A DNA stretch of 63,892 nt, counting the filler, from Dirinaria sp. TL-2023a (Eukaryota): the NCBI GenBank assembly GCA_051941275.1. It is 28 parts of 28 records of this genome, joined end to end, with 100 filler letters (N's around TTAATTAATTAA, not from the genome) between each part and the next. Parts side by side here need not be neighbours in the genome. Positions count along the whole stretch, not along the records: positions 11,552 to 13,754 come from JAVEBF010002354.1; positions 13,855 to 16,055 come from JAVEBF010002355.1; 26 more parts are not named here. One strand, written 5' to 3'. Both the position numbers and the translations under genes were made by a program. This document shows, one piece after another, positions 11,552-50,366 of this stretch. The notes under the pieces were generated by a model, which searched no databases, was not told the DNA's origin, and was given only the letters and a program-made list of their open reading frames with translations. Numbering within the stretch: the stretch's first letter is position 1; every line of letters begins with the position of its first letter.

Positions 11552-11673
11552 CTTCTAGACGACGCTAGCCATGCTTCAGACCCCGAAGGATTGCCTCTGA
11601 GCACCCCCGGCTGCCAAGCGGCGCTAGTCTGCATTGGTCAATATATATCAATGTATCAGATATCACTGTTACA
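11552..11673 (+). mobile_element. End of LTR family A (…CACTGTTACA), inserted into a Ty3 pol relic
   Basis: Nearly identical to 25919..26040. Ends in TTACA and is followed directly by integrase C-terminal coding sequence. Confidence 0.8.
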
Positions 11674-12240
11674 AAAACTCACAAATCAAAGAAATACGTC
11701 GTCGAAGAGCTGATGCTGCTTTCGACTAAAAATTTTAAGCAAAAACGATCGAGCAAGAAATTATCTCATAAGTTTGTTGAATCATTTCGAATAGAGAATA
11801 AAATAGAGACGCAGACGTACAGATTGACGCTGTCTTCTATTTATCGAATTTATAATACTTTTCACGTTTCGTTTTTGGAGTCATATTGTCTCATAAATTT
11901 GTTGAATCATTTCGAATAGAGGATAAAATAGAGACGCAGACGTACAAATTGACGCTGTCTTCTATTTATCGAATTTATAATACTTTTCACGTTTCGTTTT
12001 TGAAGTCATATTGTCATCGAGTCGACGCGAAAGCGAATCATGAGTTTATGCAGACTTTAGAGCTCATTGAGAACGAGAAAATGTAAGAGATGAAGCAAAT
12101 TGTGAATAAAATTTACAATCAGAACGAAATTTGATACAAGATGAAATGAGCAGATTGAGACGATGAGTATAATCAGTGACTTTCGAAGAAGAAATTTAAT
12201 ACTGCGTCTCAGTTACGAGACGAGTATAATATGCACGAGC
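11674..12240 (+). mobile_element. Degenerate Ty3/gypsy (chromovirus) pol end: integrase C-terminus and chromodomain
   Basis: LLSTKNFK..KKLSHKFVESFRI..YRLTLSSIYRIYNTFHVSFLE corresponds to the GPF/Y module. The chromodomain follows (YKMK*AD*DDEYNQ*L) with TGG->TGA stops. Confidence 0.88.
11764..12013 (+). repeat. Tandem duplication of 125 bp (units start at 11764 and 11889)
   Basis: Two near-identical copies of TCTCATAA...GTCATATTG that differ by a few G/A transitions. Confidence 0.9.
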
Positions 12241-13098
12241 AAATCAATGAGAAGCAGAGAGAGTCTGCGTCGTCGTCGAGCAAACGCAGAGACGAGTCGA
12301 CGCAGAATCAGCGCAGATCAAAAAGAAGAAAAAATAATTAATCTACTTCTTAATAAAGAAGGGAAAAAAACACACAGAGCAAAAAAAAAGAATAATCTCT
12401 CAAATGAAGAGAGTACTCAACTCGTGTGAGCAGAAAAGAGCGACTCACGTCGATCTCATCGTAATCGTCGCGAGACAGTTACGATGTGAACAGCAAAAAA
12501 TCTCTGCTGCTCATTTTCGTCGTCGTCGTCGTCTTCTCTTTTTTTCTTTTTCTCTCTCGATAACGAGCGCGACGCGCACGTTTCTCGATCTGTCGAATCA
12601 GAAAACTGCGTGTTCGTTTCGTCATCATTTTCGAATTCTTCTTTATCTCTTTCTCTCTCGTCGATTCGTCGACGAATTCTTCTCATTTTTTTTTCTTCAT
12701 CTCTTCTTTCTTTTTTTCGCTCTCGAGAGAGTCTCAGTTTATTTTCTTTTTCTCTTTTTCTCTTCTCGACTTCGTTTTCGCAGAGTCGAAGAGCACATTC
12801 ATCTCTTTTTTCTTCTCATCATTCTTCTTCTCGTTCTCTCACATCGCGATAGCTCGCGCAGTCAGTTGATTACGAGTATCAGCAAGCTGATTCTCGAGAT
12901 CTTTTAGCTGCACTCGCAGCGTGTTTATCTCATCTTCGAGATGACGAATACGATGATAACTGATATTCGTCGTGATCGAAATATGATCATGAGACGTTCT
13001 TCATTGACGAGATAGTTTACGAATTTGCTTCATTCGCTGATCGATTTTTCGTCGAAAAGCTCGAATGAGATTCGTCTTTCAAAAAACAAACAAACGCA

Positions 13099-13754
13099 TA
13101 TCAAAGACCCAACCTTGGTTAGATAGATTTCTCAATGGTAAAAGTCCCGGCAGCGTCAAAAGACTAACTAAACCAACTCAAAGAACTTGATGTCTATCTT
13201 ATTACTTGATTTTGTTTTCAGGGTCGTAACACTATTCGGATCTCTCTCTGAGCTTCGTCTCGAAGCTCAGCGCTCAGAGTGTGATAAGAGGTTCGTCTTA
13301 GTGAAAACGATTAAGTAGTCGCTTCGAGTTTAGTAAATTCTCAGTCGTAAAGTCTCGTCGAAAACTCGAAAATCCTTCAAACGTTCGAGCTGAGAATCGA
13401 ACTTAGAATCTTGCGACCGTGTTGACTTAATTTAATGTCAAAGATTTAACCTTGATTAAATAAATTTCTCAATGATTAAAGTCCCGACAGCGCCAAAAGA
13501 CTAACTAAATCAAGTCAAAGAACTTGATGTCTATCTTACTACTTGGTTTTGTTTTCAGAGTCGTAACACTATCCGGGTCTCTCTCTGAGCTTCGTCTCGA
13601 AGCTCAGCGCTCAGGGTGTGATAGAAGGTTCGTCTTAGTGGAAACGGTTAAGTAGTCGCCCCGAGCTTAGCAAGCTCTCAGCCGTAAAGTCTCGCCGAAA
13701 ACTCGAAAACCCTTCAAACGTTCGAACTGAGAATCGAACTCAGAATCTTGCGAT
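13099..13754 (-). mobile_element. Tandem array of a non-coding miniature LTR retroelement (TRIM-like): LTR 13099..13231, interior 13232..13435, LTR 13436..13568, interior 13569..contig end
   Basis: 337-bp period. The 133-bp repeat is bounded by imperfect inverted termini TGTCAAAGACCC...GGGTCGTAACA. A purine-rich tract precedes the LTR on the minus strand. No ORF. Confidence 0.8.
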
Positions 13755-13854
13755 NNNNNNNNNNNNNNNNNNNNNNNNNNNNNNNNNNNNNNNNNNNNTT
13801 AATTAATTAANNNNNNNNNNNNNNNNNNNNNNNNNNNNNNNNNNNNNNNNNNNN

Positions 13855-15267
13855 GCGTTACAGAATACATGAAAAATTTTTCACGAACACAACTGAGAGA
13901 TACTCATCACTAAAAGATAAATCAAAATCTCTCAAGTCTTTCTCAGACTCATATAATCGACGAGAATACATTCTCGTAAATAAGAGTGATTTTTCATATT
14001 GAGAAGAAAATTTACAGCGACAAATTGTCAGAATTCGAGAACTGTGAACAAGATCATTTCTAAAATTCGATAAACTGTTTTATCAATATCGATTCAGAGA
14101 ATGTTTAGACGTGTGTATAACTCTTTCAGATTCTCACGCTGAAAGTTAATGTTGTCAAAATACGAGTCAATTCTGTCGAAATCGACGATCGTTTTTTGAT
14201 CGAATGTTTGAAATATTATTGTATCTTAAACGAAGAAGCTGTTGACATTCATCGATGCATGTCAGATTTTAACATCTTTTTTGATCGTGTTAATCATTTT
14301 CTTTCGTTCTGAAATCATTTGCAAAATAAATTTCACAGAACGATCTTTCGTCTGTCTAATCTGCTCAATCAGATAACATTTTCAATATCGAAATTTTAAA
14401 TCTGAGATCTTGAAAATACATTTCATAATTATTCTTTTCGCATTTGTTGACGATCGCTCATTCGTGAATGAAAGACTGAGAAATTTCTCTTCGTGATTTT
14501 GAAATACTATTGTCATATCATCGACATTGATGATGATTGATTTAGAAATCGACTTCAAAACGATGTCAGTGCTAAAAAGATGAGAGCTTGACGAGTTTTC
14601 GAATAAAGAGACATCGAAGAACGATTTCACGACACTCACAGCTGAAAAAACATCGACGAAATTAATTGAGACGTTTTTTTCATTTGAATTAGTTTTTTCG
14701 AAATCATTTTTCATGAAGACGTTTTCTTCGTGAGACTTTTTGATGTGAAAACATTATCGAGCTCGAAAAATCGATGATTTTAGTTTGTTTATCTTTTTTT
14801 CGATTTTGTTTTGAGAGAGCTGCTTTTTCGATCGCATATTCGATCAGATTTCAGATAATGAGATCACACTTCGATTCTGAATAATCTTTATCATAGAGTA
14901 AACTCGTGATCGTAATTGAATTTTCGCGTTTTAGATCGTGAAATAGTAATGTTTTGTGATCTGTGACATTTCATCGCTTCTTTCTAAAAGTTTTGATAGA
15001 GTATTTGATTAAATTAGTTTTCTCGCTCTCATTGATTCGATTCATCACATTGCGAAGATTCGCGTCTTTGAGACGCGAACGTTTCTTTTTCGCTCAAGTC
15101 TCTTGATCTGTTTTCAGAAAATCTTTTACATACGTGATTCAGTAAGACTCAAACATATCGAACTTTAAAAAATTCGTCATTTCTGTTAGATCTTTGAAAT
15201 CTAATTCGAATCAAAGAACGTTTCGATTGAAATTATCTGCGTGACGAGCACTCATATTGATTGACAT
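13855..15267 (-). pseudogene. Hypermutated unknown ORF of a multicopy element
   Basis: From ATG 15267 the frame reads MSINMSARHADNFNRNVL*FELDFKD...ESY*ITYVKDFLKTDQET*AKKKR...RKKR*NV...LII*NLIE. Every stop in this ~150-codon stretch is TGA (inferred TGG). A frameshift occurs before 14714. Confidence 0.55.
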
Positions 15268-15344
15268 GATTGATGCATATAATAACGAGACAAAAAATGC
15301 TGCGAGTGATGACAAAATGAATGAGAGCTAAAAAGATGTAAATG

Positions 15345-15652
15345 AGAAATGAGTAAATTTTGAAAAGAACGCGAAAGTCAGACACTCATGATTCACTGCA
15401 CAGATTCACAATTTTGAGATTTGAGAACATTTGAAATTCACACACATCGTGAGATTCTGAGACTATTAGTAATATATATCAACTTACTTCGAATTAGATC
15501 TAATATAGTTTTTCTATAAGACTCATTGACTTTTTAAAGATAAAAGTTTGATTTTTCAATTATCTTATGTTATCGATATACAGTGAGCAGAAAGTTTAAT
15601 GTCGAAAGAAATAAATCACACGACGTTGCTGAGCATCTGTCTATTTTACAGT
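15345..15652. repeat. Dispersed repeat, reverse complement of 31823..32126
   Basis: ~305-bp alignment whose differences are mostly transitions, plus one small indel. Confidence 0.9.
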
Positions 15653-16055
15653 TGTCAAAGACCCAACCTTGATTAGATAGATTTCCCAATGGTAAAAGTC
15701 CCGGCAGCGCCAAAAGACTAACTAAATCAAGTCAAGAGACTTGATGCCTATCTTACTACTTAGGTGTTTCAGGGTCGTAACACTATCCGGGTCCCTTCCT
15801 GAGCTTCGTTTCGAAGCTCAGCACTCAGGGCGTGGGTAGAAGGTTCGTCTTAAGTGAAAAGGTTAAGTAGTCGCCTCGAGCTTAGACAAGCTCTCAGTCA
15901 CAAGTCCTCGCCGAAACAATTCTTTAAGCGTTCGAACGAAATCGAACTCAGAACTTTGCGATCGAATTGACTTGATTTAATGTCAAAGACTCAACCTTGA
16001 TTAGATAGATTTCTCAATGGTAAAAGTCCCGGCAGCGCCAAAAGACTAACTAAAC
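15653..16055 (-). mobile_element. Second locus of the TRIM-like element: LTR 15653..15782, interior 15783..15980, LTR 15981..contig end
   Basis: Same LTR and interior as 13099..13754. The boundary TGTCA at 15653 is fixed by comparison with the empty site at 31823. Confidence 0.82.
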
Positions 16056-31822: not shown

Positions 31823-32126
31823 ATTGTAAAGTAAACAAATGCTCAGCAACGTCGTGTGATCTATTTCTTTCGACATTAAACTTTCTGCTCACTGTATATC
31901 GATAACATAAGATAATTGAAAAATCAAATTTCTATCTCTAGTCAATGAGTTTTATAGAAAAATTACACTAGATTTAATTCGAAGTAAATTGATAAATATT
32001 ACTAGTAATCTCAGAATCTCACGATGTGTGTGAATTTCAAATGTTCTCAAATCTCAAAATTGTGAATCTGTGCAGTGAATTATGAATGTCTGATTTTCGC
32101 GTTCTTTTTAAAGTTCACTCATTTCT
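31823..32126. repeat. Dispersed repeat, reverse complement of 15345..15652 (copy without the TRIM)
   Basis: Direct alignment of the two segments. Confidence 0.9.
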
Positions 32127-48206: not shown

Positions 48207-50366
48207 TGTGACTACAAGGATCATAAGAGACAAACGGCGACGAATCTTCTTGGAAACTTAGTAAAGCAGATTGTGCTACAGCACAAAGAAATGCCCGAAA
48301 ATGTTGCAAAACTACACGCAGAGTGTAAAACCTCGCCGTCACCAGCAAATTGCACGTCGCTACTCCTATCATTGTCAGCCAAGTTCAAGCGCTCTTTTAT
48401 CCTGGTAGATGCATTGGATGAACATTTCAGCAACGGAGATGATGATTTATTGGAGATGACTTTCTTGGACGAGCTGCTGCAACTGCAACATGGAGAGAAC
48501 ATTTCCCCGGGCTACTCAATCTTTCTCACATCGCGGGAACACTTGGTACTTCAAGAAAGACTAGGGGCGTGCGCTCGCGCTCGAATCTACGCTGCAGATG
48601 CGGACATAGAGATGTACTTACGATCCCGCATCTACGATCATACGAAGTTCGGATTTGCTACCAAGATGCGAGAAGATCCTCAGCTCGCTCAGAGCATACT
48701 AGAAAGCCTTTCAAGCAAGGCTCAAGGCATGTAAGTCTGCACCTCAAGTGTCTACCCCTCCTCTCATGTGCAAATGAATGTATAGCTGCTCGGCAGGTAC
48801 ATGATGATCAATCGAGTTTTCTGTAGCTTCTCTTCCTTCGGTGTTTGGTTGCTAGTCACGTATTATTGTTGCAGTGCTTCCTAAATGGCTGCCTTTTCGC
48901 CATCTTGCCTTTTTTGCTTTTTGGTTTTTTTGTCTTTTTTTGGGCTAGGGGAGTTGGAGAATCTATGTTTGACAGATGTTTGGAATGCTAGCGCTGGACA
49001 TCTGAGCTGATCAATCCTGCCTAGGTTTTTATTACCCCGTCTGCATCTGGACCGACTATCCTGCCAAACAAGCGTTCGCAATCTCCGAGCAGCCTTGGAC
49101 TCTCTACCGACCAAATTAGATGAGACCTATAACGAAGCAATGACTCGGATACGGGGTCAAGTATCCCAACATTGTGAGCTTGCAACGCTAGCACTTACCT
49201 GGATATCCCTTGCACTTCGTCCACTCGGAGTGCAAGAACTACAGCATGCGCTCGCTATCAGGCCTAGGGATCGAGAGTTCGATCAAGAGGCACTACCAGA
49301 TATTGCACTCGTTGTTTCAGTCTCCGCCGGGTTAATAACGGTCGATGAGGACGGTCAGGCAGTACGCTTGGTACATTTTACCGTTGAAGAGTATTTCAGG
49401 AAAATGAAGGCCAATTTGTTCCCACGTGCAGATATTCTCCTCGCAGAGGCTTGTATTACGTATCTCTCCTATGACCAAATTACGAACCATTCCCCTCCCG
49501 ACGAAGATATCTTTCCTCTTCTCCGGTATGCCGCAGAGAATTGGGGCCATCATCTCCGTGGACAAGCGGAGCGCACTCTTCAAAACCAAGTCTTCCACTT
49601 CTTGGAGGACGAACGGAATCTAAAGTACCCAAAGTATATTATTTCCCTATTCATTCGTAATATATATTTTGGGGTAATTCACATCGTTGCGTGCCGGCTC
49701 CACCTCCTCGTACATTTTGATCTAGGGTATATTTTAAATTTATATCTAGAAAAGGACCATGTTACGGACATCGAAGATGGCTCCTTCTTCACATCACTTC
49801 ACTTAGCAGCAGCCGAGGGACGCGATGGAATTGTGAAGCTACTACTTGGCCGAGACGATATGAATGTCAATTACTTAGATATGCAAGAAAGAACGCCACT
49901 CATGGTAGCTGCTTACTTAGGAAGAGATGCTATTGTCCGTGTGTTGTTAGATCTAGACGGTGTGCAAGCAGATCGTCAAGACGAAACGAGACGAACTCCC
50001 TTATCTTATGCGGCAGAAGCAGGACACGCAGACATAGTGAAAATGCTGCTCAATCGAGATGATGTGCAAGCAGATCATCAAGACAAATACGGACAAACTC
50101 CCTTATCTTATGCGGCAGGAGCAGGACGCAAAGACATTGTAGAAATGCTGCTCAATCGAGATGATGTGCAAGCAGATCATCAAGACGAATACGGACAAAC
50201 TCCCTTATTTTATGCGGCAGAAGCAGGACGCAAAGACATTGTAGAAATTCTGCTCAATCGAGATGATGTTCAAGCAGATCGTCAAAACGAAGAGAGACGA
50301 ACTCTTTTATCTTATGCGACAGAAGCAGGACATAAAAACATTGTAGAAATGCTGCTCAATCGAGAT
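48207..50366 (+). CDS. NACHT-ankyrin NLR-like protein, truncated at both ends; intron 48731..49024
   Basis: Walker B ILVDALDE, FLTSR, AQGM|FLLPRLHLD, LP..LDETY, RPL...ELQHAL, VHFTVEEYF and YAAENWGHH, followed by ankyrin repeats. Confidence 0.93.
49959..50366 (+). repeat. Four highly similar 102-bp ankyrin repeat units (49959, 50061, 50163, 50265)
   Basis: Exact 102-bp period with near-identical DNA; the array runs into the contig end. Confidence 0.95.

Follow-up and report, generated by a model that had tools for sequence, protein, structure and literature searches.

Structure of a short repeated element in two contigs

The stretch of DNA considered here (the window) comprises 63,892 bases of the Dirinaria sp. 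TL-2023a assembly GCA_051941275.1, in which 28 length-sorted contigs of 2.15-2.2 kb are separated by N44-TTAATTAATTAA-N44 spacers. Contig 6 (11552-13754) and contig 7 (13855-16055) each terminate in a unit of 328-337 nt, composed of a 130-133-nt repeat with TG..CA ends that resembles a long terminal repeat (LTR) and a non-coding interior of 198-204 nt, and it is this candidate miniature LTR retrotransposon, with a putative self-priming mode of reverse transcription, that is the subject of the present analysis. When one unit was compared by blastn with all 28 contigs it was confined to these two, and no related LTR or interior was detected in the other 26. Tandem Repeats Finder reports a period of 337 with 1.9 copies and 90% matches at the end of contig 6; the end of contig 7 comprises 1.2 copies of a 328-nt unit. 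The element is oriented on the minus strand, all coordinates are given as plus-strand positions, and its parts, including a site resembling a primer-binding site (PBS), are as follows.

13099-13231, minus strand: LTR_A, 133 nt, the LTR that closes the contig-6 array at its 3' end, followed by flank
13232-13435, minus strand: interior A, 204 nt, non-coding, with a PBS-like site at its 5' end and a purine-rich tract at its 3' end (13232-13249)
13422-13434, minus strand: PBS-like site TAAATTAAGTCAA, one base past LTR_B, predicted to pair with the LTR_B primer site with one G:U
13436-13568, minus strand: LTR_B, 133 nt, common to both contig-6 units
13506-13518, minus strand: putative self-primer and start of R in LTR_B, where the minus strand reads TTGACTTGATTTA
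13569-13754, minus strand: interior B, 186 nt, its 5' end including the PBS lost at the contig end
15653-15782, minus strand: LTR_C, 130 nt, the 3' LTR of the contig-7 element, with its outer terminus at 15653, followed by flank
15723-15735, minus strand: putative primer site in LTR_C, fully complementary to the PBS at 15967-15979
15783-15980, minus strand: interior C, 198 nt, with a purine-rich tract at 15783-15799 and a PBS-like site at 15967-15979
15981-16055, minus strand: LTR_D, the final 75 nt of the 5' LTR, which is truncated where the contig stops, identical to LTR_C at 72 of 75 positions
15799-15821, 13248-13270 and 13585-13607, no strand assigned: hairpin with a 10-bp stem, adjoining the purine tract

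The LTRs begin with TGTTACGAC and finish with TCTTTGACA, with the exception of LTR_A, which ends in ..TTTGATA through a change of CA to TA; TG is present at 3 of the 3 visible LTR 5' ends and CA at 3 of the 4 visible 3' ends. The element is 470 nt long in contig 6 and about 458 nt long in contig 7, which places it within the dimensions of a miniature terminal-repeat retrotransposon (a TRIM), with terminal direct repeats of about 100-250 nt in an element well below 1 kb. Coding capacity is nil, with no stop-to-stop frame of at least 50 amino acids within a unit, apart from a single frame extending into the N spacer. In all three cases where an LTR 5' end is visible, the 18 nt ahead of it contain 14 purines, a composition consistent with a polypurine tract, and in interior C the reverse complement of this tract (15783-15799) reads GGAAGGGACCCGGATAG.

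An earlier note on this DNA had described an LTR-like repeat of 130-133 bp with TG...CA ends alternating with a non-coding interior of about 200 bp, a total length of about 460-470 bp and a purine-rich tract before the next LTR. The coordinates, termini and reading frames given above bear out this description, the measured length being 458-470 nt and the tract, though interrupted, being purine-rich at all three LTRs.

The hairpin beside the purine tract, a perfect 10-bp stem with a 3-nt loop, is kept in 3 of 3 interiors with variation restricted to the loop, and may be a packaging or dimerisation signal.

Element ends and insertion boundary

The arrays of contigs 6 and 7 stop at the identical LTR nucleotide, and their flanks are unrelated save for three short, weak matches (the best covering 39 nt at 72% identity, E = 0.022). 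The sequence that flanks the contig-7 element has a relative elsewhere in the window.

15345-15652, no strand assigned: flank of the contig-7 element, one copy of an older repeat, with neither CC nor GG
31825-32126, no strand assigned: paralog of this flank in contig 14 (29934-32126), continuing past the insertion point and without the element

Positions 15345-15650 align with the end of contig 14 in inverted orientation (32126-31825) at 91.5% identity over 306 nt. The homology breaks exactly at 15652/15653, which is the TG terminus of LTR_C, and contig 14 extends for a further 1.9 kb without the element. Judged from this alignment, contig 14 looks like a paralogous empty site, and because it holds a copy of the flank, the contig-7 element sits in a member of an older repeat family, the open reading frames (ORFs) of which have no Pfam match.

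Among public sequencing runs, one other run contains part of the stretch (a 0.04 share of words), and an assembly of its 31-letter words yielded two short contigs matching contig 7, with the PBS region left without cover. One of these is 130 nt long and corresponds exactly to 15653-15782, with 5 differences, none of them listed in the primer site; the other corresponds to 15753-15871, overlaps the 130-nt contig by 30 nt and extends into the interior. The points at which these contigs break would be assembly-graph branches at both LTR ends, suggesting that the LTR occurs in more than one context in that sample. The outer LTR terminus is placed at one nucleotide by the array ends, by the break in homology to contig 14 and by the 130-nt contig, and the boundaries of the miniature element proposed earlier are in this way backed by the paralog and by the contigs of the other run. 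Conserved LTR patterns gave 0 matches in each of two metagenome scans.

Putative primer site and self-complementarity

On the minus strand, a 13-nt site located one base 3' of the LTR is perfectly complementary to a site about 47-50 nt inside the LTR. Copies of the 13-mer TAAATCAAGTCAA lie at 15967-15979 on the minus strand and at 15723-15735 and 13506-13518 on the plus strand, and with one mismatch at 13422-13434 on the minus strand; these 4 matches in the window compare with 0.16 expected, and 4 were reached in 0 of 100 shuffles. The mismatch, in the PBS of interior A, is a C-to-T change that yields a G:U pair. A complement of at least 13 nt between the first 20 nt past the LTR and dinucleotide-shuffled versions of LTR_C arose in 2 of 20,000 shuffles, so that the 13-nt complementarity first pointed out in the earlier note seldom arises by chance. 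In the opposite orientation the longest complement is merely 4-5 nt.

A classical PBS is complementary to a tRNA. The first 20 nt past the LTR contain no TGG, so the 3' CCA end of a tRNA, which the earlier note had considered as a possible partner, is unable to pair there; the site is complementary instead to the LTR of the same element. In self-primed elements of the Tf1/sushi type, the PBS is complementary to roughly the first 11 nt of the transcript that the element itself produces, and Lin and Levin reportedly described, in 1998, a U5 stem-loop inside the primer-PBS duplex of Tf1. For the natural sequence of 104 nt that runs from the LTR_B primer site through the PBS of interior A, the predicted folding energy is -26 kcal/mol (z = -3.63; equalled by 0 of 200 shuffles), and the predicted structure places the 5' end on the PBS through 15 bp, including two G:U pairs, that enclose an inner U5 stem. 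The complementarity and the predicted fold together suggest self-priming.

A plus-strand reading of the element was rejected, as the complement past the LTR would then be at most 4-5 nt and no purine tract would precede the LTR in contig 7.

With regard to tRNA-like sequences, ARAGORN found 0 tRNAs in the window, and Rfam returned no match up to E = 1 for 11552-16055. When 13099-13754 was searched up to E = 10, three sub-threshold matches alone were obtained, two clearly spurious and one to tRNA. The latter, at 13719-13754 on the minus strand, is to the tRNA 3' half (model positions 37-71; 17.2 bits versus a gathering score of 29, E = 1.1), and contains a T-arm-like hairpin just downstream of the PBS that is broken in interior C; on the strength of this alignment it may be a tRNA relic. 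A reading of the element as derived from tRNA and transcribed by RNA polymerase III, as in Helenus, was rejected, the LTR having no detectable tRNA-like gene.

A probable tandem in contig 6 and a probable single copy in contig 7

Contig 6 has the order interior-LTR-interior-LTR. Aligned over 320 positions, units A and B have 35 differences (11%), so that contig 6 is not one assembly-graph loop walked twice; as far as the sequence goes it is a real tandem in which LTR_B is shared. LTR_A and LTR_B are identical at 117 of 133 positions. The order in contig 7 is LTR-interior-LTR, as expected of one element of about 458 nt, and 72 of 75 LTR positions are identical. The tandem array with shared LTRs that had been proposed for this DNA therefore stands for the two units of contig 6 and is not called for in contig 7. 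Satellite DNA forms long head-to-tail arrays that end at arbitrary unit phases; here, both of the visible array ends lie at the LTR terminus.

CC/GG depletion and the timing of insertion

The flanks and the element copies differ in their content of CC and GG dinucleotides, as the following counts indicate.

Contig-7 flank, 13855-15652 (1,798 nt): CC+GG 0 observed, 90 expected
Contig-6 flank, 11552-13098: CC+GG 18 observed, 117 expected
Contig-7 element: CC+GG 35 observed, 39 expected
Contig-6 array: CC+GG 35 observed, 56 expected

Since the flank in contig 7 is purged of CC and GG and the element it adjoins is near expectation, the element most likely entered DNA that was already mutated. Within the contig-6 array, copy-private C-to-T or G-to-A changes affect 13 of 22 CpC/GpG sites versus 12 of 115 other C/G sites (Fisher p = 2e-6), and the pattern of changes suggests that this tandem is most likely older and was partly struck by the same CpC/GpG mutation process. 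Elsewhere in the window, contig 14 has a CC+GG observed/expected ratio of 0.00, and contigs 10 and 12 are partly depleted (0.49 and 0.48). CpG is retained both in the depleted flanks and in contig 14.

A probable self-priming miniature element and its alternatives

It is rather likely that the element is a non-coding, TRIM-type miniature LTR retrotransposon with self-priming of the Tf1 type. Reverse transcription would most likely begin as in the yeast element Tf1, to judge from the complementarity and the modelled fold. Transcription would start at or near TTGACTTG in the 5' LTR (13518 or 15735, minus strand), and the first 13-15 nt of the RNA would fold back onto the PBS. The subsequent steps would presumably use chromovirus proteins: RNase H provided in trans by a Tf1/sushi-type chromovirus would cut the duplex to yield the primer, and the integrase of the same chromovirus would insert the cDNA. 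The contig-6 units that share LTR_B could have come from unequal recombination between LTRs, or from cDNA joined to a resident copy by Rad52 single-strand annealing.

Several observations weigh against this interpretation. The autonomous Ty3 partner envisaged by the earlier note was sought in the window and was not found there, the sole chromovirus piece being a dead, mutated integrase fragment on the opposite strand that has no DNA likeness to the element. The transcript start is putative, no RNA run being listed among the public runs that contain the stretch. Folding predicts an inner U5 stem for all 4 LTRs, yet a two-sided change is seen in only 1 of 22 pairs, so that there is no real covariation, and the truncated stretch from LTR_D to its PBS folds no better than shuffles (z = -0.01). 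The copies vary both in the primer (GG or GA, in the LTR) and in the PBS (CC to TC to TT) with pairing kept; these variants are the changes expected from the genome's CC-to-TC and GG-to-GA mutational bias, and covariation was therefore rejected as support for primer-PBS pairing, the variants giving no evidence of selection for it. The purine tract is broken by CCC (or TCC). The contig-14 paralog displays one side of the insertion only, so the end of homology may be coincidental, and no target-site duplication is seen, both 5' flanks lying beyond the contig ends. Finally, only two loci are present in the window.

The repeat could alternatively be a satellite-like tandem, derived from the element and now spreading by recombination only, not (or no longer) by retrotransposition. 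Both copies run off contig ends, the neighbouring units A and B are more alike (89%) than A and C are (82%), and tandem LTR elements are known to expand into satellites (PMC11042837, in the passages drawn on here). This explanation is nonetheless unlikely, because the two array ends that can be seen coincide in phase with the LTR terminus, contig 7 is accounted for by one element with LTRs identical at 72 of 75 positions, and the contigs of the other run break at LTR ends, as expected for an LTR in several contexts. A miniature LTR element might also take a host RNA as its primer, for instance an internal or half tRNA (compare Copia-type elements and the fungal Helenus), with the self-complementarity incidental. 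The fungal Helenus TRIMs are described as using mostly tRNA anticodon-loop primers (PMC10886601), and the comparison covered the window, which lacks tRNA genes. Such priming is quite unlikely given that a 13-nt exact complement (15 bp with G:U) occurs at the canonical PBS position, a coincidence reached in 2 of 20,000 shuffles.

Two further explanations concern the assembly and the extent of the unit. That the contig-6 tandem is an assembly chimera, two loci having been joined through shared LTR words in a fragmented short-read assembly, would accord with the length of about 2.2 kb of 28 of 28 contigs and with the fact that both repeat-bearing contigs break inside the repeat. It is very improbable, as the 35 differences in 320 positions between A and B rule out a repeated pass through one loop and LTR_B has variants of its own and is continuous with both interiors; the interpretation of the element is, moreover, independent of the tandem. 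Internal tandem repeats are frequent in LTRs and contig 6 has a Ty3-type integrase fragment at a distance of 1 kb, so the unit might be regarded as a sub-repeat of a larger LTR or a larger element. This last proposal is extremely improbable, because the integrase fragment is on the opposite strand, the contig-6 and contig-7 flanks are unrelated beyond their three short weak matches, the contig-14 homology stops exactly at the TG terminus, the 130-nt contig of the other run is the LTR alone, and the plus strand of contig 7 is not purine-rich before the LTR.

Relation to known elements

The self-priming TRIM considered rather likely here combines features of several published systems, which are compared below as described in the cited passages of the respective reports. 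Within the Tf1/sushi group self-priming is the norm, and it has been put forward for many fungal elements (PMC6317226, PMC4600332, PMC6934838). In Tf1 and Tf2 of Schizosaccharomyces pombe, Tj1 of S. japonicus and the Tf1/sushi group, as in the present element, a PBS beside the 5' LTR is complementary to an upstream LTR site that is taken as the RNA 5' end, a role that is putative here; the likeness extends to the lack of a tRNA-type PBS, the TG..CA ends and the ascomycete host (PMC4600332, PMC6317226). The element differs from this group in having neither gag nor pol, a length of about 460 nt, LTRs of 130 nt and an RNase H cut that is putative. As it is non-coding, the Gag-PR-RT-IN order with a chromodomain integrase that characterizes the group is absent, and the element could at most be a non-autonomous dependant of it.

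Fungal TRIMs include Helenus, of Pucciniales and Agaricomycetes, and RLX_TRIM of Parastagonospora nodorum, and share with the element small size, non-autonomy, two short terminal direct repeats and a non-coding interior with PBS and polypurine-tract positions (PMC10886601, PMC8549362). Helenus comprises 113 families in Pucciniales, mostly with tRNA anticodon-loop primers and with 5-bp duplications (PMC10886601), and the P. nodorum TRIM families average under 400 bp and may escape repeat-induced point mutation (RIP) (PMC8549362). In contrast to these elements, the PBS described here pairs with the element's own LTR instead of a tRNA 3' end or anticodon loop, searches of its LTR found no tRNA-like gene, and its interior has the weak, sub-threshold tRNA 3'-half match only.

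Tandem TRIMs with shared repeats are common (PMC6934838), and the TDRx_I(x-1) forms of plants, cestodes and bivalves have the same LTR-interior-LTR-interior order with shared LTRs as contig 6 (PMC6934838), in which two units are visible. In S. pombe, Tf1 cDNA enters beside a resident copy through Rad52 single-strand annealing and produces tandems with one LTR between the copies, and ten such Tf tandems are reported in 17 wild isolates (PMC11042837). These integrase-independent, Rad52-dependent tandems of Tf1 and Tf2 consist of self-priming elements, as proposed here, and are likewise head to tail and separated by a single LTR, but they are full-length and experimentally shown (PMC11042837), whereas the route to the contig-6 tandem is putative.

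The earlier note knew of no described fungal example. Fungal TRIMs have been published (PMC10886601, PMC8549362), so this part of the statement does not hold; what stands is that a self-priming TRIM is absent from the literature search results, none being described in the titles and abstracts returned by full-text searches. Since fungal TRIMs, tandem TRIMs and self-priming have each been published already, the novelty is modest and the gain incremental.

A broader proposal, which is doubtful at present, is that self-priming TRIMs form an unrecognised but widespread fungal class of parasites of Tf1/sushi chromoviruses that build LTR-sharing arrays by the PBS-directed annealing demonstrated for Tf1. 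Under this proposal a single copy, because it is so short, would largely escape the CpC-directed repeat hypermutation of this fungus, and such elements would be among the last to remain mobile in a genome where the larger repeats are already ruined. If the self-priming TRIM described here is genuine, the tRNA-independent priming of Tf1 passes to non-autonomous dependants, and the element provides a natural substrate of about 460 nt in which to define the cis RNA needs of a self-priming reverse transcriptase and capsid. The pairing of a near-intact element with a flank purged of CC and GG also provides a means of dating insertions relative to an episode of genome defence in a lichen-type fungus.

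Neighbouring sequences and host context

The remnant of a chromovirus lies at the other end of contig 6.

11569-12086, plus strand: dead Ty3-type integrase C-terminal fragment (Pfam SH3_Tf2-1, E = 9e-13), on the strand opposite to the element

This relic, which is context and not a demonstrated partner of the element, contains an internal 125-nt tandem duplication with 96% identity (11760-12015). Its first 124 nt (11552-11675) recur in contig 12 (25919-26042) with 96.8% identity.

Pfam matches on the remaining contigs are fungal and comprise MDM10, Nop16, COG5 and a protein that combines ankyrin repeats and a GPI inositol-deacylase winged-helix domain. The best named relatives of the MDM10 fragment are from lichen-forming Lecanoromycetes (60-68% identity), and one further protein is 83% identical. 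The host is a fungus of the Pezizomycotina and, as these protein similarities indicate, probably lichen-forming, with no near relative sequenced. Within the ankyrin-repeat ORF that carries the GPI inositol-deacylase winged-helix domain, positions 49961-50366 hold four tandem units of 102 nt with 89% identity, and the predicted product resembles a fungal NLR-like protein, the repeats of which appear to have been duplicated very recently.

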